From positions 1 to 34,084 of the forward strand of contig CAZEQN010000001.1 in the NCBI GenBank assembly GCA_964514335.1: a DNA stretch of 34,084 bases, read 5' to 3'. A model generated the notes under the pieces. That model was not told where the DNA came from and did no database searches. It saw nothing but the letters and a program-made list of their open reading frames with translations. This document shows, piece after piece, positions 5,341-28,953 of this stretch (position 1 is the first letter of the stretch; each line of letters begins with the position of its first letter). Source of the stretch: an uncultured Anaerolineaceae bacterium. Its GTDB lineage: Bacteria > Chloroflexota > Anaerolineae > Anaerolineales > UBA11579. A program made the translations under genes and the position numbers.

Positions 5341-7416
5341 ATGTACTGGTATCGCGATGAAAATCCGTTAAGTTTGCTGCCCTGGCTGGGCGTGCTGCTG
5401 CTGTGGTGGGGCGGCGGCTGGCTGCTGGCAACCCACCTCTTCCGGCTGAAACCCCGCGAGCGGCTGGTGGTGGGCTTCGGGCTGGGGCTGGTGCTCTACC
5501 TGTGGGCCACCAACCTGCTGGCGCACGGACTGCCGCCGATGCTGGCGTTTTCGCTTTCCGGCCTGCTGGTACTGCTGGCCGGCCTGTTAGCAGCCTGGCG
5601 CAGCGGCGAACGCTGGCTGGACCTGGCCGACCTCAAGGTCTGGCCCTGGCTGGCGGCCGGGCTGGCGCTGACCTATTTCTTCCTGCTGACCGGCAAAGGT
5701 CTGGCGATTTTTGACGAGCACAAAAACCTCTCGCTGATTTCCATTATGGCGGGCGGGGACATCCCGCCGCGTTTCTATCTGGAATACCCGCTGAAACATA
5801 TCTACCATTATGGTTTTCAACTGCTGGGCGCCAGCCTGATGCGCCTGGGCGGGATGATGCCGTGGAGCGCCTTTGACCTTGGCAAGGCCATCGTGTGGGC
5901 GCTGGCCCTGTTGCTGGCCGGGCTGGTAGGGCGGCGCTATATCAAGAGTACCCGCGGGGCCTTGCTGGCGGCGGCCGTGCTGGCCTTTGCCAGCGGCACG
6001 CGCTACCTGTTGCTGCTGTTGCCGCCCGGCCTGCTCTTGCGAGCAGATGCAGTCGTAAAACTCACCGGCACGAGCGCCTTCGTCAACCTGCCGTTTTCGC
6101 AAGCCCTGCTGACCGGCTGGACGATTGACGGCGGCCCACCCTCGGCCTATATTTTCGCGTTCCTGAATGGCATCTATGACCCGCTGGTGATGTCGCATCA
6201 GGGGGCGCAGGCCACTTCGCTTTCGATTTTTCTGTTAATGTGGCTCACCGCCACCCGCATCCGGCATCGATTTGCGCCGCTGCTGCTGGCGGTGGTATAT
6301 GCCATGTGGGCGCTGGTGTGGGAGACCACTTACGGCCTGGTGTGGCTGGCGACCTTTGGGCTGGCGGCGCTTTTATACTGGCGGCAGCGTGAGGCCCTGA
6401 CCCCCGTTTTTCGCCAGCATTTGCTGGCCCTGGCGCTCTCCGTGCCGATTGCGCTGACGCAGGGCGGCACGCTGACCGAACTGGCGCGTAAGGTAATTTT
6501 CGGATTCGAAGACGGCGGAGTGGAAGCCCGGTTGCACTGGCTGCAGGCAGTCGGCAGCGGCGTAGCCGGATGGCTGCTGGCCTGGCTGCCCCCGCTGGCC
6601 CCGGCCGGGGTTGGGCCGAGCATCCTCGGCTTTTCGCTGCAATGGCCGCCGGCGATTCTCTCGGCCCATTTTGAGCCGTTGAGTCTGTTCTCCCCATTTC
6701 AGCTTATGGTCGGCCTGTTTGAACTGGGGCCGGTGATTCTGTTTACGCCCTGGCTCACGGCCTGGGCCTGGCGGCGCACCAGGGCCGGCGATTGGCCGCT
6801 GGGCGTGGTGGCCTTGAGTTCGTGGATTGGCTTTGCCCTGCCGATTTTCCTTCAGTATGAAGCGGGGCGCGACATCTCGCGCCTGACCTGGCAGGCGCTG
6901 GTGGCCTGGGGGCTGATGCTGGCGCTGGGCAGCCGGGATGTACACTGGCCGGCGACCTTGCGGCGGGCGGGGGCGGTAAGCCTGGCGTTGATGATGTTCG
7001 GCGGGCTGATGCTGGCCGGGATTCAACTGACGGCGGTTTCAACCACCCAACTGGCACACCGCTATACTGAACTGGATGCCCAACTGGCCAGCGAAATCTG
7101 GGATACCCTGCCCTACAACGCCCGCATCTTCGGCAACCCGGGCAATGCCACCGTGCTGACCGGGCGGCTGGCCGAGCAACTGCTGGATGAGCCGGTCACG
7201 CGGCGCTGGCAAAGTCTGCTGACCGACTTGAATCTGGATGTGCTGGTGGATTATGGCTTCGAATTTGTGCTGGTGAGCAACCGCTGGCCGAGCGATACCA
7301 TGCTGGATCAGATTGCTGCCCTGGAAGCCCAGCCCTGCGTAGTGCTGATGACCGAAGTGTGGGACACCAGCCGCGTAAACTTCCGCAAACTGTATGACAT
7401 CCGGGGTTGTGATTAA
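5341..7416 (+). CDS. Large polytopic membrane protein with a C-terminal soluble domain. Possibly a GT-C-type glycosyltransferase or polymerase; function unproven.
   Basis: It is 691 aa. The first ~570 aa are hydrophobic with more than 10 TM-like segments, followed by a ~120-aa hydrophilic tail. An acidic loop (FDEHKN) follows the early TM segments. AAGGA lies upstream, and an extended -10 (TGgTAGAAT) is at 5287-5295. Confidence 0.45.
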   Translation: MYWYRDENPLSLLPWLGVLLLWWGGGWLLATHLFRLKPRERLVVGFGLGLVLYLWATNLLAHGLPPMLAFSLSGLLVLLAGLLAAWRSGERWLDLADLKVWPWLAAGLALTYFFLLTGKGLAIFDEHKNLSLISIMAGGDIPPRFYLEYPLKHIYHYGFQLLGASLMRLGGMMPWSAFDLGKAIVWALALLLAGLVGRRYIKSTRGALLAAAVLAFASGTRYLLLLLPPGLLLRADAVVKLTGTSAFVNLPFSQALLTGWTIDGGPPSAYIFAFLNGIYDPLVMSHQGAQATSLSIFLLMWLTATRIRHRFAPLLLAVVYAMWALVWETTYGLVWLATFGLAALLYWRQREALTPVFRQHLLALALSVPIALTQGGTLTELARKVIFGFEDGGVEARLHWLQAVGSGVAGWLLAWLPPLAPAGVGPSILGFSLQWPPAILSAHFEPLSLFSPFQLMVGLFELGPVILFTPWLTAWAWRRTRAGDWPLGVVALSSWIGFALPIFLQYEAGRDISRLTWQALVAWGLMLALGSRDVHWPATLRRAGAVSLALMMFGGLMLAGIQLTAVSTTQLAHRYTELDAQLASEIWDTLPYNARIFGNPGNATVLTGRLAEQLLDEPVTRRWQSLLTDLNLDVLVDYGFEFVLVSNRWPSDTMLDQIAALEAQPCVVLMTEVWDTSRVNFRKLYDIRGCD

Positions 7417-8447
7417 TGGCTACTCAAAAGGACATTATGCGCCCCAACGCAATTCCGACGCCGGCGGTCGATTCACCGGTACAGGTCTCGGTCGTCATCC
7501 CGGTTTATAACGAACTGAAGAGCGTGCCGCTGCTACACAAGGCCTTGCATGAAGCCCTGGATGATTACCCCACCACCTGGGAAGTGGTGTTCGTGGATGA
7601 TGGCAGCCGGGATGGCAGTTTGCAAGCCCTGGAAATCCTGGCCGGGGGCGACCCGCAGCACACCCGCGTGGTGGCGTTGCGGCGCAACTTCGGCCAGACG
7701 GCCGCCATTTCGGCCGGGATTGATTACGCCCGCGGCGACATCATCGTGCTGATGGACAGCGACCTGCAGAATGACCCGGCCGACATCCCGATGCTGTTGG
7801 ACAAGATTAACGAGGGTTATGACCTCGTGAGCGGCTGGCGCAAGGACCGGCAGGATGCGTTTTTCACCCGCACCTTCCCCTCGCGCATCGCCAACTGGAT
7901 TATCTCCAAAGTGACTGGCGTCGGCCTGCATGACTATGGCTGCACCCTCAAGGCCTACCGCCGCGAAGTGCTGACCGGCTTCCGGCTGTATGGCGAGATG
8001 CACCGCTTCATCCCGGCCTATGCCGGCTATGTCGGCGCCAAAATCACCGAAGTGGTGGTGCGCCACCACCCGCGCAAATTTGGCAAAACCAATTACGGCC
8101 TGAACCGCACGGTCAAGGTCGTGCTGGACCTCTTCACGGTCAAGTTTTTAAGCGGCTATGTCAACAAACCGATTTACCTGTTCGGCGGCTTTGGCCTGGG
8201 GCTGATTGGCATCTCCGGCAGCGGCTTCCTGTACCTGCTCTATCGCAAGTTCGTCTTTCTGGCCGAAACCACGACCTCGCCGATTTTCCTGTTGAGCATC
8301 ATGCTCACAGTGCTGGGAGTGCAATCGATTCTGCTGGGGCTGATTGCCGAAATTGTCGTGCGCACTTACCATGAGTCGCAGTCCAAACCAATTTACACCG
8401 TGCGCTTTGTGATTCAGGGCGACGACCCCAGCGAGCCGCATGCCTGA
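7416..8447 (+). CDS. Glycosyltransferase family 2, polyprenyl-phosphate sugar synthase type (GtrB/DPM1/ArnC-like)
   Basis: It has VSVVIPVYNE, DDGSRDGS and a DSD (DxD) motif. Two C-terminal TM helices give the typical GtrB architecture. A TAATG overlap joins it to the upstream gene. Confidence 0.85.
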   Translation: MATQKDIMRPNAIPTPAVDSPVQVSVVIPVYNELKSVPLLHKALHEALDDYPTTWEVVFVDDGSRDGSLQALEILAGGDPQHTRVVALRRNFGQTAAISAGIDYARGDIIVLMDSDLQNDPADIPMLLDKINEGYDLVSGWRKDRQDAFFTRTFPSRIANWIISKVTGVGLHDYGCTLKAYRREVLTGFRLYGEMHRFIPAYAGYVGAKITEVVVRHHPRKFGKTNYGLNRTVKVVLDLFTVKFLSGYVNKPIYLFGGFGLGLIGISGSGFLYLLYRKFVFLAETTTSPIFLLSIMLTVLGVQSILLGLIAEIVVRTYHESQSKPIYTVRFVIQGDDPSEPHA

Positions 8448-15524: not shown

Positions 15525-16002
15525 GCCGTATCTCCTCCAGATGTTCCAGGTAGTGTTCCACGGTTTCGGACAGAATCACTTCGACGACTGGATAGTCGCC
15601 CGGTTCGTCCGGATAGCGGCGTGTTGCGGCCAGCCGGGTTTCGGGGCAGGCTTCGATGGCGGCGAGGGTCTCCTGATGCGAGCGGGCAAAGAGCGCCTGC
15701 ACTTCGGCCAGCGGACGGTCACGCCAGGCGGCCTGAAAGCGGCCATTAATGTCGTCCACGTCAAATTCGGGGATATGGACGCCAGCAATGGTGTAGCCCT
15801 CGTGGCCGCGCTGGCCGGGCAACTGGTAGCGCACCAGCATCTGCTCCCACAGGGCGATGTGGGCCAGCGTGTCCTTGACCGACCAGGCTTGCGGTTCAGG
15901 GCGAGATTCGATTTGGGCGGGGGTCAGGCCCGCCAGAGCGCTTTCCAGTTCAGCACGCGCCGCCCGGATTTGGGTAAGCAGGGAGGATTTGGTGGGGGTC
16001 AT
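15508..16002 (-). CDS. DinB-family four-helix-bundle protein
   Basis: It is 164 aa. The WSVKDTLAHIALWE pattern and the C-terminal H-x-x-x-H-like VEHYLEHLEEI are typical of DinB_2-like proteins. Confidence 0.65.
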   Translation of the reverse strand: MTPTKSSLLTQIRAARAELESALAGLTPAQIESRPEPQAWSVKDTLAHIALWEQMLVRYQLPGQRGHEGYTIAGVHIPEFDVDDINGRFQAAWRDRPLAEVQALFARSHQETLAAIEACPETRLAATRRYPDEPGDYPVVEVILSETVEHYLEHLEEIRHAATR

Positions 16003-16418
16003 GGGGAGGCCTTGTCCTGAATTGGAATTAGTTTTCTCTGAAATTTGGGGCTTCCATTTTTAACTTCGCATTCCCAAATTCTAATAACCTGCCAACCTTT
16101 TTTCTTCAAGGTTTCTTTTACTAGGCGGTCGCGAGCAATGTTGCGATTTCGCTTTGCTTCCCAATATTCTTGATTTTGCTTTGGCCTTGTATTCCTACAA
16201 TCATGTCCATGCCAAAAGCAACCATCTATAAATACTACAGTTCTTCGTTCTCGAAAAACAAAATCGGGTTTTCCAAACAGAGGGTAATTCCTTCTCCACC
16301 CCCTTATTCCTAATTCTCTGAACCAAGAAATCATTTGCAGTTCAGTAGATTGATTCCCTGAAGATTTTACAGCCCTCATAATTTGAGAGCGCTTGTCTTT
16401 CGAGAAGGTATCGGTCAT
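15999..16418 (-). CDS. vsr: Very-short-patch repair endonuclease
   Basis: It has KRSQIMRAVKS, GKPDFVF, VVFIDGCFWHGH and IRIWECE motifs. The ATG at 16418 overlaps the upstream TGA (ATGA). An alternative TTG start is at 16442. Confidence 0.9.
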   Translation of the reverse strand: MTDTFSKDKRSQIMRAVKSSGNQSTELQMISWFRELGIRGWRRNYPLFGKPDFVFRERRTVVFIDGCFWHGHDCRNTRPKQNQEYWEAKRNRNIARDRLVKETLKKKGWQVIRIWECEVKNGSPKFQRKLIPIQDKASP

Positions 16419-17164
16419 ATTCTTTTTATAACTTCTACCCAACTTTCCTCAAACCCTATTGCCGAAAGATATTTGTCTTTGTCCAACTTCTCAGGCAATT
16501 TAATTTTCAGAATCAGTATTTGAGTTGGAACGTTTTCTTTGATAGTGAATTGCGAGCCGTGGGGTTGCCAGGTAAATCGGTGAGTAGCTGTTGCCTTGTC
16601 AAAGCCCTCAAGATTTTCGTGCTTGTTCCATTTCCAAACATACAATTCCGGATCATAGAGGATTGTTTCCATCTCAAAGACTGCGAGTTCGCTTAAGTCA
16701 TTGGACTTCATAAGTACGATAGTTCGCAGAGAAGAATATTTTTGCCGAATACTCGAAACCCTCTCATTCCATATTTGCAAAACTTTTTGACCCAGGGGGT
16801 TTGCATCAATATCTTTAACTCGTGACTCTCCAAATGAAAAGGCAACAGAATTTCGCCCTGATATAAGACGAACGGATTTGGCCTGAGAAGGCTTACTTGC
16901 TTTTACAGTTTTTGCTCCCCATGCAAAACTACCTAAGCGCACATCATCAAGTCCAACATTTGACGGCGTCCATTCCGCCCCAATACTACGAGCAAAAATC
17001 TCTTCCCATTCTTCACCCTGCAAAGAGGGTTGAGATTTTGTGCTTAAGAGATAAATAATTTCCCTTCCGAGCTTAATTCCAAAATTATTTGGAAATTGAT
17101 TTAACGGATAAGGTTCTTCAACCTTATTTACATTTCTAAGACGAGGCCGATTATTGGCGGGCAT
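16415..17164 (-). CDS. Putative Type II restriction endonuclease (called from position only; family unassigned)
   Basis: This 249-aa ORF sits between the C5-methyltransferase and vsr, overlapping them by 14 nt and 4 nt. It shares their AT-rich composition. I recognise no catalytic motif with confidence. Confidence 0.5.
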   Translation of the reverse strand: MPANNRPRLRNVNKVEEPYPLNQFPNNFGIKLGREIIYLLSTKSQPSLQGEEWEEIFARSIGAEWTPSNVGLDDVRLGSFAWGAKTVKASKPSQAKSVRLISGRNSVAFSFGESRVKDIDANPLGQKVLQIWNERVSSIRQKYSSLRTIVLMKSNDLSELAVFEMETILYDPELYVWKWNKHENLEGFDKATATHRFTWQPHGSQFTIKENVPTQILILKIKLPEKLDKDKYLSAIGFEESWVEVIKRI

Positions 17165-18143
17165 AATTCATTTCAACTTCTTGTGAGATTTCGCTTTTTC
17201 TCTTTGATGTGGCCGGATGAGGTTCAAGCAAAGGCAACAGGTTCGTTAGAACTGCATTGACTACGTTTACAGGCACGGCATTTCCCGCCTGCTTACGAAC
17301 CTGCGCATCCGGCACAACAATTTTATAGCTGTCCGGAAAGCCTTGTAGCCTCAACATCTCACGCGGTGTAAGTCTTCGCTCCCCATTAACAAGCAGATAG
17401 TTATAAGAAGCGCCTGCTCGAAGCGCGCATGAGAATGGATGAGAACTCACATTCCCCCCCTTATTTTCATGCCAAATAGAAACGCTATGCTTTGAAGCAT
17501 GTTTTTCTTTTCGCTTTTGGACAATCATTTCAGATGCATAGTGTTTCTTGTCTACAGATTTTTCAAGTATTTCTTCCAGCGGTTTATATGTTTCCAACTT
17601 ATGCGGCCACTTAAATAGAGCCAAAAGACTAGGATCCAGAAAACCGATGATAAATACGCGCTCGCGCTTTTGAGGTAATCCATAATCCAAAGCATTTAAG
17701 ATACGGTAATCGAAGTGATACCCTAAATCCTCTATGGTTTGCAGAATGCGAGTAAAGGTATGGCCCTTTTCATGGCTGACCAGTTGCTTTACGTTTTCAA
17801 GCACAAATGCTTTTGGTTTTTTTGCTTCTAAAATCCGAGCTATTTCAAAGAATAGAGTTCCCCTGGTATCGTCAAAACCCTTACCGCTACCAATAATGCT
17901 AAATGGTTGGCATGGAAAACCAGCAAACAGAACATCATGGTCTGGAATATTTTCAGATGCTATTTGGGTAATGTCGCCTTCAGGATACTCCCCAAAATTC
18001 GCTTCATAGGCTAGCTTTGCATACTCATCTATATCAGAAGATAACAGACAGGAAATATCCAGATTCTTTTTTACGGCTACTTGTTCTGCGGCTACTCTAA
18101 ACCCACCAATTCCGCAAAAGAGATCAATAAATCTAATCGTCAT
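17151..18143 (-). CDS. DNA (cytosine-5)-methyltransferase
   Basis: Motif I is DLFCGIGGF, motif IV is FPCQPFS, motif VI is ENV, motif VIII is QKRERVF, and motif X is GNAVPV. Confidence 0.95.
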   Translation of the reverse strand: MTIRFIDLFCGIGGFRVAAEQVAVKKNLDISCLLSSDIDEYAKLAYEANFGEYPEGDITQIASENIPDHDVLFAGFPCQPFSIIGSGKGFDDTRGTLFFEIARILEAKKPKAFVLENVKQLVSHEKGHTFTRILQTIEDLGYHFDYRILNALDYGLPQKRERVFIIGFLDPSLLALFKWPHKLETYKPLEEILEKSVDKKHYASEMIVQKRKEKHASKHSVSIWHENKGGNVSSHPFSCALRAGASYNYLLVNGERRLTPREMLRLQGFPDSYKIVVPDAQVRKQAGNAVPVNVVNAVLTNLLPLLEPHPATSKRKSEISQEVEMNYARQ

Positions 18144-23077: not shown

Positions 23078-24091
23078 CTAAGCGGCCAGTTTTTTGAAAT
23101 CAGCCTGGAGTTGCCGCCAGAAGGCATCCCGCTCGCCGGGGCGCAGAGGGATGTAGACCGTGATGCGGTCGGCGAGGCCGGCGTAGCGTTCGTGCAGGGC
23201 GGCGGCCAGGTCGGCTTCGGGGGCCACGGTGGCAAAAGTACCCAGCATCTCATCGCTGATGAGGTCGGGCATCTCGGCCCATTCCTGTTTGGCAGCGTGG
23301 CCGCTCAAACGCTCGGCGACTTCGGCCCAGCCGTGGTGGGCCATCACCGCCCGGTAGGAGGGGGTGGAGGCATAGAAGGCGATTTGCATGCGCACCAGGG
23401 CTTCATCGTGCGGGCTGCTGACGGTGAAGGCATTCACGACCATATCCAGCGCAGTGCGCGGCCGGCTGGCGCGGGCGAGGCCCTCCTCAAAGGCGGGCAG
23501 CATCACCGTACGCAGGTAGTCGGGCGAGTGATAGGGGTGGACGTGAAAGCCATCCGCCAGTTCCCCGGCGAGGCGCGCCAGGCCGGTATTGACCCCCGCG
23601 ATGTAAATCGGGATGTCGGGGTGCTCGATTTTGTCAGGCGTGAAGAAGGGTGAGGTCAGGGTGAGTTTGTAGTACTCGCCGCGCTGGTTGAGTTTTTCGC
23701 CGGTTTGCCAGTGCGCCCAGAAGGCACGGATGGCCTGAATCTGTTCGCGCAGTTTGCCGGTCACAGACTCCGGCCAGGGCAGGCCAAAGCGCCGCTCGAT
23801 GTGGGCCTTGACCTGCGTACCGAGGCCGAGCCGGAAGCGCCCGCCGGAGAGTTCGGCGAGGTCCCAACTGCTGTGGGCCATCACGGCCGGGCTGCGGGCA
23901 AAGGACACCGCGATGCCGGTGCCAAACTGAATGCGCTGGGTGTTGGCGGCGATGAGGGCGCAGGCGAGGAAGGGGTTGTGCTGGGTTTCCGCGGCCCAGA
24001 TGCAGTCAAAGCCGAGGGCCTCGGCGTGGCGCGCCAGTTCCGGCACAGCGCTCAAGGGGGTGGAAGGGTCAAGGAAGGTGTCTAATTGCAT
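23078..24091 (-). CDS. Luciferase-like monooxygenase (LLM) class, probably an F420-dependent oxidoreductase
   Basis: It is 337 aa. The N-terminal pattern (AEALGFDCIWAAETQHNPF ... GTGIAVSFARSP ... GRFRLGLG) is typical of the LLM family. Confidence 0.75.
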   Translation of the reverse strand: MQLDTFLDPSTPLSAVPELARHAEALGFDCIWAAETQHNPFLACALIAANTQRIQFGTGIAVSFARSPAVMAHSSWDLAELSGGRFRLGLGTQVKAHIERRFGLPWPESVTGKLREQIQAIRAFWAHWQTGEKLNQRGEYYKLTLTSPFFTPDKIEHPDIPIYIAGVNTGLARLAGELADGFHVHPYHSPDYLRTVMLPAFEEGLARASRPRTALDMVVNAFTVSSPHDEALVRMQIAFYASTPSYRAVMAHHGWAEVAERLSGHAAKQEWAEMPDLISDEMLGTFATVAPEADLAAALHERYAGLADRITVYIPLRPGERDAFWRQLQADFKKLAA

Positions 24092-24103: not shown

Positions 24104-24310
24104 TTATGGCGTCGGGTTGCGGAGGATGATTTTGCGCTGGCGTTCGGATTCGTCTGTATCGATTTCTTCTCCACATTCACGGCAAGTTACAGTTTCCTCA
24201 TCAGTAAACCTATGGTCAATCACTACAAACTTCGCATTTTCAAATGAAAGAACTTCATATTGATTGGGGGTTGATACGAATTCCTCTGAACCACAAGAAG
24301 GGCAGTTCAT
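24104..24310 (-). CDS. Small zinc-ribbon protein (CPxCG ... CxxCG), function unknown
   Basis: It is 68 aa: MNCPSCGSEEF...VTCRECGEEI. A GGAG lies 8 nt upstream, inside the end of the preceding gene, and only 3 nt separate it from that gene's stop. Confidence 0.6.
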   Translation of the reverse strand: MNCPSCGSEEFVSTPNQYEVLSFENAKFVVIDHRFTDEETVTCRECGEEIDTDESERQRKIILRNPTP

Positions 24311-24313
24311 TGT

Positions 24314-25189
24314 TCACTCCTGTTCAATTTCACGAGTTTCAATACCATATCTTTTTGCTCTCGTTTTCATAAAAGGATGTATCCAATGGGCAACCAGCAT
24401 ACCCCTTGTTTCAGCAAAGGAACGTCCAAAATAAATCGCGGCCATATACTTGTATTTTGTTGCTTGCAGCAATCCTTCGATATCTTTCACGCCGACTTCA
24501 TTTTCAACCTCTACCGCAAGAAATCGGCTTCTGGAGTCTTCAAACAATAAATCAATCTTATCTGTGGTGGGAAAACGATATTCCATTTCGATACAGGTTA
24601 AGTTATTTTCAATAAGGCTTGGCGTGTGGCAAAGGCGATATTTTAAGGCGCGGTGGGTAGCACCCTCTCCCCTTGCACTATAAGCTCTAACTTTTCTCTC
24701 AAAGTCCGATTTTCTATTTCTCGCTACTTCAGTGTAGCTTTCATAATCGAAACCATCTATAGTTTTTAGCCATGCAATGATTGTGCTTGCTCTTCTTGGG
24801 GCAGTTGCACCCTTAAGGTCAGAATTTTCTTCTAGGAATTTCGAAATACTTGATTTGTTTAGCTCTGTTTCGGACAAATTATCAAGAATAAATTTAACGA
24901 TTTGTGTATTACGAACAGCATCAACTAGGATGGTATGTTTATCTTCAACTCTCACGCTCTTTAGAAATCGTTTTCCCAAGTCACTTACAACTGGTTTATC
25001 TCTGCTAGGCTCTAAAAAGCCCAGCACTCTTGCAGCATGTTTGTAGTAATCCACCTGCCGTTGATCAATTCCAAGTTCAGAACCTAATCTTTTGTTCCCA
25101 ACAAACCCTACATCGACCAATGCAATTAGATCACCAACTAATTGAAGACTATTTGCCTGAGGGATATCGACGGTCTTAAATTTTTTCAT
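24314..25189 (-). CDS. Unassigned 291-aa protein, putative nuclease partner of the Dam-type methyltransferase
   Basis: It overlaps the methyltransferase stop by 14 nt. The C-terminal segment KIDLLFEDSRSRFLAVEVENEV...LLQATKYKYM resembles the core strands of NucS/RecB-like PD-(D/E)XK nucleases. The N-terminus has two wHTH-like segments. I recognise no named family. Confidence 0.45.
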   Translation of the reverse strand: MKKFKTVDIPQANSLQLVGDLIALVDVGFVGNKRLGSELGIDQRQVDYYKHAARVLGFLEPSRDKPVVSDLGKRFLKSVRVEDKHTILVDAVRNTQIVKFILDNLSETELNKSSISKFLEENSDLKGATAPRRASTIIAWLKTIDGFDYESYTEVARNRKSDFERKVRAYSARGEGATHRALKYRLCHTPSLIENNLTCIEMEYRFPTTDKIDLLFEDSRSRFLAVEVENEVGVKDIEGLLQATKYKYMAAIYFGRSFAETRGMLVAHWIHPFMKTRAKRYGIETREIEQE

Positions 25190-26069
25190 AATTCGTTACA
25201 ACCAGTTCTGAAACTGGCCCTCTCCCACTTCCCTTTGAATTAATGTTTCTTCTTGCGCGTATCTCGTGTACGGTAAATTCATGATAAGTACTGTATAGCT
25301 TTCTCGTATACTCACTATCGCTATTGCTAATAACTACATATACACCACGGGTCGTTAGTTGCTGGGCAACCTCGGCTAATCGCCTATGCTCTTGTATAGC
25401 AGTACTTGACTTTCCAAACCCCGTATTTGCATAACTTGTAAAGCCATTGCCTTCTGTGTAATAAGGCGGGTCAAAATAGACCAAGTCCTTAGCATTCGCA
25501 TATTCTAGGACAAAATTAAAATCACCCGAATGTAATTTCGCTTCTTCTAAAGCATTAGAAGCGGCGCGCAAACCGCTTTTTTCATAGATTTTTGGATTCT
25601 TGTAGGAACCAATAGGTACATTGAATTCACCCTTTGAGTTGACTCTATACAAACCATTGAAGCATGTTTTATTTAGATAAATCAATCGTGCAGCACGCTG
25701 TATAGTCCCCAATGTTTCTGGGGATTTTGCTCTTATTGCATAATACTGCTTTGTTGAGTGGTTTCTTTTTAGTTGTTCAAGTTCGGGCAAAAGAGAATCT
25801 AGATCGTCACGTATGATGCGATAAGAATTAATTAACTCTTCATTCGCATCATTGAGATGGGCTGTAAATTGTCCATACTGCCGCCTAAGAAAAAAAAACA
25901 CAGCCGCACTCCCAAGAAACGGCTCAAAGTATCCGTTAAAATCTTTTGGGAAAAAATCAAATAGAGTGTTAAGAAGTTGGGTTTTGCCTCCAGCCCATTT
26001 TAAAAAGGGTTGCGCAATTGAATTTGCTAAATATGGATTAATAATCTGTTCTTTAATGCGGTTGGTCAT
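25176..26069 (-). CDS. dam: Dam-type (D12 class, alpha) N6-adenine DNA methyltransferase
   Basis: It has the FLKWAGGK motif, EPFLGSAAVFF (SAM binding) and the DPPY catalytic motif. I prefer the start at 26069, where AT-rich composition begins and which leaves 21 aa before FLKWAGGK. In-frame starts exist up to 26171. Confidence 0.9.
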   Translation of the reverse strand: MTNRIKEQIINPYLANSIAQPFLKWAGGKTQLLNTLFDFFPKDFNGYFEPFLGSAAVFFFLRRQYGQFTAHLNDANEELINSYRIIRDDLDSLLPELEQLKRNHSTKQYYAIRAKSPETLGTIQRAARLIYLNKTCFNGLYRVNSKGEFNVPIGSYKNPKIYEKSGLRAASNALEEAKLHSGDFNFVLEYANAKDLVYFDPPYYTEGNGFTSYANTGFGKSSTAIQEHRRLAEVAQQLTTRGVYVVISNSDSEYTRKLYSTYHEFTVHEIRARRNINSKGSGRGPVSELVVTNYEKI

Positions 26070-26222
26070 TTTGGGGGTAACCATGTGCCAACTAGGGTTC
26101 ATAGATTTCAGCGCCCGCAAGGGTGCGCGCATAGTTGTGGCTGGCATCATTGTACCCTCGCCTACTGGCATTTGCCTGACTTTTGCCCTACAATAGACGC
26201 AGGAAAGCAGTTTGGTGACAGT

Positions 26223-26528
26223 ATGCTAACTGAATCGCTGATTGATAAACCCGCCCTGGCCGCCTTCTGCCGCCGCCACCACATTCGCCGCATGTCGTTG
26301 TTCGGCTCGGTGTTGCGCGCCGATTTTACGCCGGAGAGTGATGTAGATGTGCTGGTGGAGTTTGACCCGCAACATATCCCCGGCTTTATTCGGCTCGTGC
26401 ACATGCAGGAAGAACTTGGTGAGTTGCTCGGCGGTCGGGAAGTGGACCTGGTGACCGAAAAATTCATCAACCGGCACATTCGCGGGCAGGTGCTCGCCTC
26501 GGCGCAGGTAGTGTATGCAGGGGGATGA
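26223..26528 (+). CDS. mntA: Nucleotidyltransferase (MNT) antitoxin of an HEPN/MNT module
   Basis: It has the GS-x10-DxD pattern (FGSVLRADFTPESDVDVLVEF). It is 101 aa from the ATG at 26223. Confidence 0.85.
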   Translation: MLTESLIDKPALAAFCRRHHIRRMSLFGSVLRADFTPESDVDVLVEFDPQHIPGFIRLVHMQEELGELLGGREVDLVTEKFINRHIRGQVLASAQVVYAGG

Positions 26529-26856
26529 CCGACTCTACATCCGACACATGCTGGATTCGGCGCGTAAAGCGCAAGCCATCGCTGGGAAGATGAGCCGGGC
26601 GGAATTTGATGCGGATGAAACCACCCGCCTGGCACTCACTCATTTGCTGCAAGTGATTGGCGAAGCAGCCCGCCGAGTCTCAAGAGACTATCAGGATAGC
26701 CGCCCGCTTATTCCGTGGTCAGGGGTTATCGGCATGCGTCACAAAGTAGTACATGATTATCTCAATGTAGATGACGATGTCGTCTGGCAGACTCTACAGG
26801 AAGACTTGCCAGAATTAATAGCAGCCCTTGAACAACTGGCTGCCGCCGATTTCTGA
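26515..26856 (+). CDS. hepT: HEPN-domain (DUF86) toxin
   Basis: It has the R-x4-H motif (GMRHKVVHDY), is 113 aa, and overlaps the MNT gene by 14 nt. Confidence 0.85.
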   Translation: MQGDDRLYIRHMLDSARKAQAIAGKMSRAEFDADETTRLALTHLLQVIGEAARRVSRDYQDSRPLIPWSGVIGMRHKVVHDYLNVDDDVVWQTLQEDLPELIAALEQLAAADF

Positions 26857-28157: not shown

Positions 28158-28514
28158 TTACTCCGCTGCTATTCTGCTTTCCGCTATCCGTTTCACGTCT
28201 TCCAAAACTTGATCGAGATTGTTCAGTATCGCAGCGTTCGGGTAACGGCATACAAGAATCCCGCGCTCCGCCAGCCAGGCATCCCGGGCATGGTCATAGT
28301 CGGCGCGACCGGTATGGCTTTCGCCATCCAGTTCAACTACCTGTTTGGCGGCGGGGCAGTAAAAATCCAGAATGTAAGGGGGCATGACATGCTGCCGCCG
28401 CCATTTCAGACCAGCCATTGTTTTGCGCCGCAGGGCCTGCCACAGGCGCGCCTCGGCCGGGGTGGGTGTTTTGCGGAAGTCCCGCGCCCTGGCAACCCGG
28501 CGTTTCTTATCCAT
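28158..28514 (-). CDS. DUF559 endonuclease-like (Vsr-fold) protein
   Basis: It has TPAEARLWQALR, the ILDFYCP...VVELDG core and a LAERGILVCRY tail. It is 118 aa from the ATG at 28514 and overlaps the upstream gene by 8 nt. Confidence 0.8.
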   Translation of the reverse strand: MDKKRRVARARDFRKTPTPAEARLWQALRRKTMAGLKWRRQHVMPPYILDFYCPAAKQVVELDGESHTGRADYDHARDAWLAERGILVCRYPNAAILNNLDQVLEDVKRIAESRIAAE

Positions 28515-28953
28515 GCTTCTGGGGAACTTCACCCACCTTGCGCGCCGGCACGCCCGCCCAGATTTCGCCCTCCGGCAGGTCCTCCAGCAGCACGGCATTC
28601 GCCCCCAGCACCGCCCCGCGCCCCACCCGCAGCACGCCGCTTTTGCACAGCACTTTGCTGCCCGGTGAAAGTATCGCCCCGTCTTCAATCTGGATGCCTT
28701 CAAAGGCGGATTGCGCAATGGGGATGTGGATATCCGCCCGGCCGAGGGTCACGCCGGGGTAGATTTTGACATTCGCGCCGATGCGGGTGCGAGGGTGGAT
28801 GACCACCCCAAAGCCGCCATGCACGAGGGTGAAGCCGGGGCCAATCTCTACCCCGCGCGGGATTTCACTGCCGAGCAGTTTAAGCAGATAGTAGGCCAGC
28901 CGCCCCACCAGCGGCCAGCGGCGGGCATACACAAGGCGGGTATAGAAATCCAT
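28507..28953 (-). CDS. Hexapeptide-repeat (left-handed beta-helix) acetyltransferase, CysE/WcaB-like
   Basis: It is 148 aa with repeated [LIV]-G-x4 hexapeptides (IGPGFTLVHGGFGVVIHPRTRIGANVKIYPGVTLG...). Confidence 0.8.
   Translation of the reverse strand: MDFYTRLVYARRWPLVGRLAYYLLKLLGSEIPRGVEIGPGFTLVHGGFGVVIHPRTRIGANVKIYPGVTLGRADIHIPIAQSAFEGIQIEDGAILSPGSKVLCKSGVLRVGRGAVLGANAVLLEDLPEGEIWAGVPARKVGEVPQKHG

Follow-up and report, generated by a model that had tools for sequence, protein, structure and literature searches.

A DpnM-like methylase, a predicted DUF7226–NucS-type restriction nuclease and a companion zinc-ribbon gene in an Anaerolineaceae genomic island

The NucS/EndoMS nuclease acts in mismatch repair, and Dam together with MutH forms the classical GATC-directed repair pair. 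Methylases of the Dam subfamily also serve in GATC restriction systems of the DpnII/MboI type, where the methylase gene precedes the nuclease gene in a compact operon. A preprint presents, as a defence endonuclease, a sensor domain joined to a NucS-like PD-DExK nuclease (PMC12191111). We analysed a low-G+C island in a 34,084-nucleotide stretch of DNA from an uncultured Anaerolineaceae bacterium (the window; assembly GCA_964514335.1, contig CAZEQN010000001.1, positions 1 to 34,084). On its minus strand the island carries genes for a Dam/DpnM-type methylase, a 291-residue protein with a NucS-type domain, and a 68-residue zinc ribbon. The methylase and the 291-residue protein very probably form a restriction-modification module, and Type II restriction-modification is the best reading of the pair because the methylase linkage is conserved and the predicted nuclease site is intact. 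The type of system is thus a known one; the nuclease family is uncharacterised, and its zinc-ribbon companion belongs to an undescribed family.

The three open reading frames (ORFs) lie at 25176-26171 (331 residues), 24314-25189 (291 residues) and 24104-24310 (68 residues). The start of the second overlaps the methylase stop by 14 nucleotides. The third starts 3 nucleotides past the stop of the second, has its own GGAG 6 nucleotides 5' of the ATG, and is apparently translationally coupled to the nuclease gene. G+C content is 0.38-0.42 over 24.5-26.0 kb, compared with 0.60-0.69 across most of the window, and G+C at third codon positions (GC3) is 0.32 in both the methylase and nuclease genes and 0.82-0.83 in the flanking host genes. 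A preliminary description, made by a model from the letters of the window, had reported three co-oriented, coupled genes in a low-G+C block within a chromosome of about 63% G+C, and its ORFs, overlap, gap, GGAG and composition are all reproduced here. Within the zinc-ribbon gene the last 57 or so nucleotides have a G+C content of 0.54 against 0.39 for the first 150, and the stop codon lies 12 nucleotides upstream of the next host gene (start codon at 24091). No tRNA, Rfam element, integron or attC site, or meaningful direct or inverted repeat was found at the island.

The methylase reading frame is open to 26171, and its earliest ATG codons (26171 and 26150-26145) fall in the G+C-rich host flank. 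A sister Chloroflexi genome that lacks the methylase (L011) shares this flank, with blastn homology reaching window position 26142. Because the earliest ATGs lie in shared host sequence and homologous methylases are 290-306 residues long, a start near 26066 (M36) is more likely, giving a protein of 296 residues (25176-26066) rather than 331. The remaining divergent intergenic region (26067-26222) separates the methylase from an MNT antitoxin-type gene. Its outer part, approximately 26142-26222, is the flank common to L011 and may supply the operon promoter. A TACAAT box at about 26147-26152 on the minus strand faces the island, with TAAAAT at the same position in L011; a promoter consensus scan gave nothing above chance. 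Beyond this region, an MNT (nucleotidyltransferase)/HepT (HEPN) toxin-antitoxin pair flanks the island (26223-26856, plus strand; 5093-5732 in L011) and is, in each genome, the conserved border of the variable region. Locus L031 likewise has an MNT/HEPN pair, upstream of a related zinc ribbon.

The methylase is a D12, alpha-class N6-adenine methyltransferase by its matches to Pfam D12 (PF02086; 193 bits, E 9.7e-57), TIGR00571 dam (268.8 bits, cut-off 114.85) and PADLOC MTase_II (1.2e-87), and it contains the motifs FLKWAGGK, EPFLGSAAVFF and DPPY. The D12 and TIGR00571 scores bear out its earlier assignment, from FLKWAGGK and DPPY, to the Dam-family m6A methyltransferases. The closest solved relative is DpnM (2dpm; E 3.5e-60, 44% identity) and the second is E. 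coli Dam. Against the E. coli Dam equivalog NF008152 the protein scores 158.8 bits, below the cut-off of 441, and on sequence grounds it is classed as a DpnM-like restriction-modification enzyme and not as a housekeeping Dam.

Several features point to GATC as the target. The recognition hairpin of the methylase, NGLYRVNSKGEFNVP, is nearly the same as that of DpnM. Counterparts of EcoDam N120, L122, R124, P134 and Y138, which Horton et al. 2006 are said to have found in contact with GATC, are kept in all nine methylase-nuclease loci described below, as are PFLKWAGGK, EPFxGxxA, DPPY and the hairpin NGLYRVNxxGxFNVP. In the host DNA of the window, counted after removal of both of its low-G+C islands, GATC occurs 16 times against 110 expected (0.14 of expectation). 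It is the second lowest of the 256 tetramers, behind CTAG (2 seen against 18 expected). Given the relation to DpnM, the kept hairpin residues and the depletion of the site in host DNA, GATC is the best guess for the target, and the balance of this evidence leans towards it as the site of the methylase-nuclease pair. Three observations pull the other way. The depletion is partly a lineage trait, since GATC stands at 0.50 of expectation in the sister genome, which has no methylase-nuclease module; other hosts that carry the module are only mildly depleted (0.56-0.87); and 3 GATC sites are retained inside the island itself.

The 291-residue protein is a predicted restriction endonuclease of two domains. 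Residues 30-144 match Pfam DUF7226 (PF23871; 46.5 bits, cut-off 27) and residues 186-289 match Pfam NucS_C (PF01939; 30.8 bits, cut-off 24). An AlphaFold2 (AF2) model has a mean predicted local distance difference test (pLDDT) score of 80.6 and a disordered linker at residues 147-174 (pLDDT below 50). The linker separates a helical DUF7226 domain with a winged-helix-like core (residues 1-146; 24752-25189, minus strand) from a NucS/EndoMS-type PD-(D/E)xK domain (residues 175-291; 24317-24667, minus strand). Foldseek places the nuclease domain closest to P. abyssi NucS and T. kodakarensis EndoMS (2vld and 5gke; E 4e-6 to 1e-5), which superpose with a root-mean-square deviation of approximately 2 Å over 109-110 residues; the next match is Card1.

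These assignments replace the earlier description of the 291-residue protein as unassigned. The other part of that description, that the protein is unlike DpnII/MboI and EcoRV, stands: at E values up to 1 it matched none of the DpnII/MboI, Sau3AI/MutH or EcoRV models in Pfam, NCBIfam and PADLOC. A full-length match to a characterised Type II endonuclease family, named earlier as the finding that would speak against a new family, did not appear in the scans of these three collections. No PADLOC restriction-enzyme catalytic model was matched, and phmmer gave no match among PDB sequences. PADLOC REase_II model PDLC03513 aligns only over model positions 275-418, corresponding to DUF7226 (E 0.0014). 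By sequence the protein is also not a NucS orthologue: it lacks the N-terminal domain of NucS and scores far under the equivalog cut-offs (33.2 against 216 for NF003270; 26.6 against 252 for NF002876). In the library searched, no paper was found on DUF7226, on DUF6997 or on NucS with Dam and restriction. The family is uncharacterised and may be listed as putative in REBASE.

The predicted active site was located with a 15-sequence profile of the C-terminal domain aligned to P. abyssi NucS. D213 corresponds to D160, E227 to E174, E229 to K176, Q242 to Q187 and Y246 to Y191. On the minus strand these residues are encoded at 24551-24553 (D213), 24509-24511 (E227), 24503-24505 (E229) and 24452-24466 (Q242, K245 and Y246). 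Two features mean that nuclease activity, which is a prediction for the whole family, is not guaranteed: the canonical (D/E)xK lysine is replaced by glutamate E229, and the divergent relative P0008 has no E227, Q242 or Y246. The same features would be expected if the nuclease were catalytically dead or domesticated and the island amounted to an orphan Dam methylase accompanied by a DNA-binding partner. We judge this quite improbable. D213, E227, E229, Q242, K245 and Y246 are kept in 9/9 loci at 39-58% overall identity, and strict linkage to a methylase implies a toxic partner. The active site of BamHI uses ExE, and EVK is present in some relatives of the nuclease domain, so that the position tolerates both residues. 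By analogy, D213/E227/E229 would be a BamHI-like ExE variant of the metal site, and the invariant K245 of the QAxKY helix is a candidate to replace the missing lysine.

The N-terminal domain has the DUF7226 hallmarks PQAN(S/T)L, RQxDYYxxAARxLG and TxxRRAxTIxxWL. Its model gives weak fold matches to IclR/CggR winged helices, which suggests a role in DNA binding or target recognition. The DUF7226 profile found nothing significant in the PDB (EcoR124 HsdS at E 0.04, motif-level only). Among approximately 15 contexts inspected, DUF7226 also stands alone, lies C-terminal to DUF6996-DUF6997 (the arrangement of PADLOC REase_II PDLC03513) or lies N-terminal to a PDLC03534-like restriction domain. A 429-residue DUF6996-DUF6997-DUF7226 protein is encoded behind a D12 methylase on the L. 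plantarum plasmid Lp16C; in it the same recognition-type module would sit on a different cleavage domain. A possible relation between the NucS_C-like domain and DUF6997 was rejected, the hhalign probability being 0.1%. DUF7226 was also seen inside DptF, a protein of phosphorothioation-dependent restriction, on a Priestia megaterium plasmid, and at the C-terminus of DUF6575 proteins on a Pantoea plasmid and in a Promineifilaceae metagenome-assembled genome (L020, 7140-8456), with no adjoining methylase. Its presence in DptF and in DUF6575 fusions that have no methylase neighbour argues that it is no dedicated reader of Dam sites, which detracts from its proposed part in a GATC system. If the nuclease is active, DUF7226 would gain a functional setting as a shuffled module of restriction nucleases.

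Linkage between methylase and nuclease was examined in nine distinct loci, including the window, gathered by context look-ups and a scan of genome contigs. The D12 methylase lies directly upstream of the nuclease, in the same order, in all nine, and the two genes overlap or are separated by at most 49 nucleotides. The loci come from Anaerolineae, Dehalococcoidia, other Chloroflexota, Acidobacteriia, Hydrogenedentota and Binatus. Pairwise identities of methylase and nuclease co-vary (76/72, 61/59 and 57/48), as expected for a co-inherited pair, and in most loci the G+C content of the pair is below that of the DNA around it. The preliminary description had proposed a restriction-modification system with an undescribed endonuclease family and had made conserved methylase linkage its own test; the linkage holds at every locus. 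Its alternative, some other kind of methylation-linked defence system, gained no support. In PADLOC neither the nuclease domain nor the ribbon matched a defence system, and candidate assignments to Shedu, PD-Lambda-5 and similar systems were rejected.

The complete architecture is rare. A word-indexed homologue search with the 291-residue protein returned 3 relatives, and a HMMER scan of 1.84 billion representatives returned 2338 matches. The full-length DUF7226-NucS_C arrangement was represented by P0003, P0007 and P0008 and otherwise by fragments only. Elsewhere the nuclease domain is fused to many different N-termini, including those of TmtA-like proteins of around 1400 residues, and the nuclease had no match in the phage collection.

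The pairing of a NucS-like nuclease domain with a Dam-like methylase could also be understood as methyl-directed repair, in which the 291-residue protein would be a nickase: a NucS-type counterpart of MutH that discriminates strands with the help of the methylase. What the protein shares with NucS is the catalytic domain alone; the mismatch-binding N-terminus is absent and the equivalog score is 33 against 216. No mutS or mutL is linked at the loci inspected, and the strong avoidance of GATC fits restriction and not repair. The low-G+C island, the patchy occurrence over several phyla and the overlapping methylase and nuclease genes likewise make a repair role very improbable, and we retain restriction-modification as the function of the pair.

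The 68-residue zinc ribbon (24104-24310) is acidic and has four cysteines (C3, C6, C43 and C46). Its AF2 model has a pLDDT of 92 and consists of a beta-ribbon and one short helix. Scans against Pfam, NCBIfam and PADLOC placed it in no family at cut-off and gave generic ribbon matches below threshold: MqsA_antitoxin at 16.3 against 30, TIGR03830 at 16.6 against 61.8 and Lar at 19.2 against 28.6. There was no match to the helix-turn-helix (HTH) models HTH_3 and HTH_31. Fold searches against the PDB and BFVD found weak generic ribbons, with a Lar-type 'restriction alleviation' protein at E 0.78, and there was no ribbon match in viral structures, the phage collection or plasmids. A profile built from four ribbons retrieved 81 clusters of 52-85 residues, never fused to another domain and marked by the motifs C(x1-2)CGSxEF, PNxYD and CRECG. 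The isoelectric point (pI) is 4.4 for the window ribbon and has a median of 4.7 in the family. No literature on a zinc-ribbon accessory or controller protein of restriction-modification was found in the library searched.

Thirteen genomic contexts of the family could be interpreted. In 11/13 the ribbon lies beside non-homologous restriction nucleases or DNA methylases, and in 10/13 its start overlaps the upstream gene or falls within 17 nucleotides of its end. Six contexts (L021, L023, L024, L028, L032 and L035) have a DUF6997-type nuclease as the immediate upstream neighbour of the ribbon, two (L025 and L029) an NmeDI_C protein, the window the DUF7226-NucS_C nuclease and L011 a DpdB/DndB-like protein. 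In L030 this neighbour is a 59-residue ORF behind a PLD-DpnI_C nuclease, and in L031 an HTH_3 gene, with a D12 methylase overlapping the ribbon 3' end. L034 has no restriction-modification gene on either side of the ribbon, and is further considered below.

Additional features were seen in these operons. NmeDI_C proteins occur repeatedly with DUF6997 or DUF7226 nucleases and the ribbon (L001, 5425-7483; L025, 2326-5083; L029, 3109-4195). The L025 ribbon occupies the slot between nuclease and methylase, which an HTH C-protein fills in L001. The idea that a ribbon has replaced the C-protein in an orthologous NmeDI_C system was rejected, since L001 and L025 show 29% identity and have unrelated methylases, leaving a positional analogy only. 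GGCC is found 2 times against 43 expected in the L001 host flanks. PLD-family nucleases fused to the DpnI C-terminal winged-helix domain are present in two ribbon operons (L028, 186-1040; L030, 2964-3758), in L028 together with a DUF6996/7-DUF7226 nuclease. The DpnI winged-helix domain reads Gm6ATC, and PLD-DpnI_C proteins would accordingly be methyl-directed enzymes.

The closest relative of the window ribbon (P0006, 70% identity) is found at the syntenic site of the sister genome L011. The order there is M42 peptidase, HepT, MNT, cargo and ribbon, and the flank is 78% identical to the window at the DNA level. In L011 the region 6011-8222 holds, as cargo, a low-G+C gene for a 657-residue DpdB/DndB-like protein (PADLOC DpdB, 2.9e-21), with the ribbon 16 nucleotides downstream. 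No other Dpd or Dnd genes are in view, and the cargo may be a stand-alone defence gene. The same flank and ribbon with different cargo in the two genomes indicate that an exchange of cargo took place next to a ribbon that was kept. Each of the two ribbons has the other as its closest relative, although their GC3 (0.39 in the window, 0.65 in L011) tracks the adjoining cargo and not the host. Between them dN (nonsynonymous divergence) is 0.21, compared with 0.11-0.16 for flanking genes; dS (synonymous divergence) is saturated.

These observations bear on whether the three genes make up one obligate system, with the ribbon as essential subunit or controller. The layout in the window can be read this way, with the ribbon start 3 nucleotides past the nuclease stop behind its own GGAG and a GC3 resembling the island (0.32) more than the host (0.82). 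L032 has the same order of D12 methylase, nuclease and ribbon, and the L025 ribbon, between an NmeDI_C nuclease and a methylase, is in the usual place of a controller gene. The family hidden Markov model (HMM), however, found no ribbon in six-frame translations of the eight other methylase-nuclease loci, and none on Lp16C. The nearest ribbon has a DpdB-like gene, not a restriction-modification pair, as its linked neighbour, ribbon-linked D12 methylases are just 36-43% identical to that of the window, and the acidity of the ribbon is unlike DNA-binding controllers. An obligate three-gene system is therefore improbable. Because it is absent from the eight other loci, the ribbon is, as far as sequence can tell, not a subunit required by the DUF7226-NucS_C nuclease family. 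The preliminary description had placed the zinc ribbon within the system; its idea of an accessory role keeps some support from the recurrence of the family behind restriction nucleases, whereas a conserved three-gene unit does not (0/8 other loci).

At the opposite extreme, the ribbon may be a bystander, a resident or remnant gene at the edge of a hotspot where cargo is swapped, with no functional tie to the pair. Retention of the MNT/HepT flank and ribbon around differing cargo in the window and L011 fits this, as does a ribbon dN somewhat above that of the flanking genes. So do ribbons that persist beside decayed restriction-modification genes (L024 and L030) or none (L034), from which the ribbon seems to outlive its neighbours. 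One ribbon, P0184, is identical in L023, where it accompanies an intact N6_N4 methylase and DUF6996/7 pair, and in L024, where its neighbours are a truncated DUF6997 and a fragment of an NmeDI_C protein; L023 and L024 share the downstream flank. The L030 ribbon lies beside a 92-residue D12 methylase fragment. Against a bystander, the family is strongly conserved over 81 clusters in its CGSxEF, PNxYD and CRECG motifs, and the tight juxtaposition to nuclease genes in 10/13 contexts is hard to explain without function. We regard the bystander alternative as a minority possibility, to be taken seriously.

The explanation we propose, probable as a whole, is as follows. A two-gene Type II restriction-modification module would have been acquired horizontally, entering a variable defence hotspot beside the MNT/HepT pair and landing immediately upstream of a ribbon gene already associated with the locus. 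The DpnM-like methylase would mark host adenine, most probably at GATC. The 291-residue enzyme would bind DNA through its DUF7226 winged-helix-type domain, and its NucS-type PD-(D/E)xK domain, with the predicted metal site D213/E227/E229, would cut unmethylated sites. Overlap of the two genes would couple their expression, methylase first. The ribbon would be a protein-binding modulator of nuclease activity, either a buffer or an establishment-safety factor, and not a DNA-binding controller.

This last part is held tentatively, and taken singly it falls somewhat short of an even bet. A role at the protein level is suggested by the recurrent tight position of the ribbon behind unrelated nucleases, its acidity and its having no DNA-binding hallmark. 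Several points work against it. The ribbon partners are not homologous (NucS_C-like and DUF6997 domains are unrelated by hhalign), which argues against a specific ribbon-nuclease interface; one context, L034, has no restriction-modification neighbour; and the best Foldseek lead is a weak one, to the N-terminal zinc domain with which MqsA binds its toxin (E 0.07, TM score 0.34). It is possible, if rather doubtful, that the family is an unrecognised class of restriction-modification accessory: an acidic, MqsA-N-like protein that moves among DUF6997, NmeDI_C, PLD-DpnI_C and NucS-type nucleases and modulates them at the protein level, as an antitoxin-like buffer or a DNA mimic for safe establishment, in place of transcriptional C-proteins.

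If the nuclease is active, it would represent an uncharacterised restriction-enzyme family partnered with Dam/DpnM-type methylases and combining DUF7226 with a NucS-type cleavage domain, and MboI/DpnII would probably gain a new isoschizomer that is not homologous to them. The ribbon family, with 81 clusters and no Pfam model, occupies the last position in restriction-modification operons whose nucleases are of four or more unrelated types. Should it indeed be an accessory class, the operon in the window would be a natural chimera in which the ribbon has been re-used with a new nuclease family, and control of restriction enzymes by a safety or modulator protein that acts after translation would be a regulatory principle new to toxic gene pairs of this sort. 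The locus is also an example of how cargo is swapped at a defence hotspot, here one with the MNT/HepT pair and the ribbon gene as its borders.

Two other regions of the window are of related interest. A second low-G+C island (0.39-0.43; 15999-18143, minus strand) has the same three-gene layout. It encodes a 330-residue C5-cytosine methyltransferase, assigned by eye from FPCQ and ENV motifs, a 249-residue protein with no Pfam match that is a candidate restriction nuclease, and a 147-residue Vsr mismatch endonuclease (PF03852, E 2e-22). In the host DNA AGCT ranks third among the depleted tetramers (26 seen against 94 expected), and our guess is that the second island is an AluI-like AGCT system. 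Separately, the C-terminal half of an ORF at 28158-28718 (minus strand) resembles, by eye only, a DUF559/Vsr-like endonuclease domain (LDFYCPAAKQVVELDGESH).

The module can be set against four groups of described systems. It is most like the DpnII/MboI-type GATC systems, with which it shares a Dam-subfamily methylase (44% identical to DpnM, with the near-identical hairpin NGLYRVNSK.xFNVP), a compact methylase-then-nuclease operon, a probable GATC target and a host that avoids GATC. It differs from them in having no second, DpnA-type methylase, in its extra zinc-ribbon gene, and in a nuclease that has no detectable DpnII/MboI similarity and is built instead from DUF7226 and a NucS-type domain. 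With NucS/EndoMS (2vld and 5gke) the nuclease shares the C-terminal PD-(D/E)xK fold and equivalent D, E, Q and Y residues in the active site. Unlike NucS/EndoMS it has glutamate in place of the lysine and no N-terminal dimerisation and mismatch-binding domain, and its linked gene is a methylase on a mobile island rather than one of replication or repair. The putative Type II enzymes of DUF6996-DUF6997-DUF7226 architecture (PDLC03513; Lp16C) have the DUF7226 module and a D12 methylase partner in common with the window protein, and DUF6996/7 nucleases are the usual upstream neighbours of the zinc-ribbon family. Their catalytic domain is not detectably homologous, and DUF7226 is C-terminal in them and N-terminal in the window. 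Finally, the ribbon resembles C-proteins, Vsr and Lar-type accessory genes in being a small gene embedded in restriction-modification operons. It is distinguished from the HTH C-proteins by its four cysteines, its acidity, its lack of an HTH and its usual position downstream of the nuclease gene, not ahead of it.

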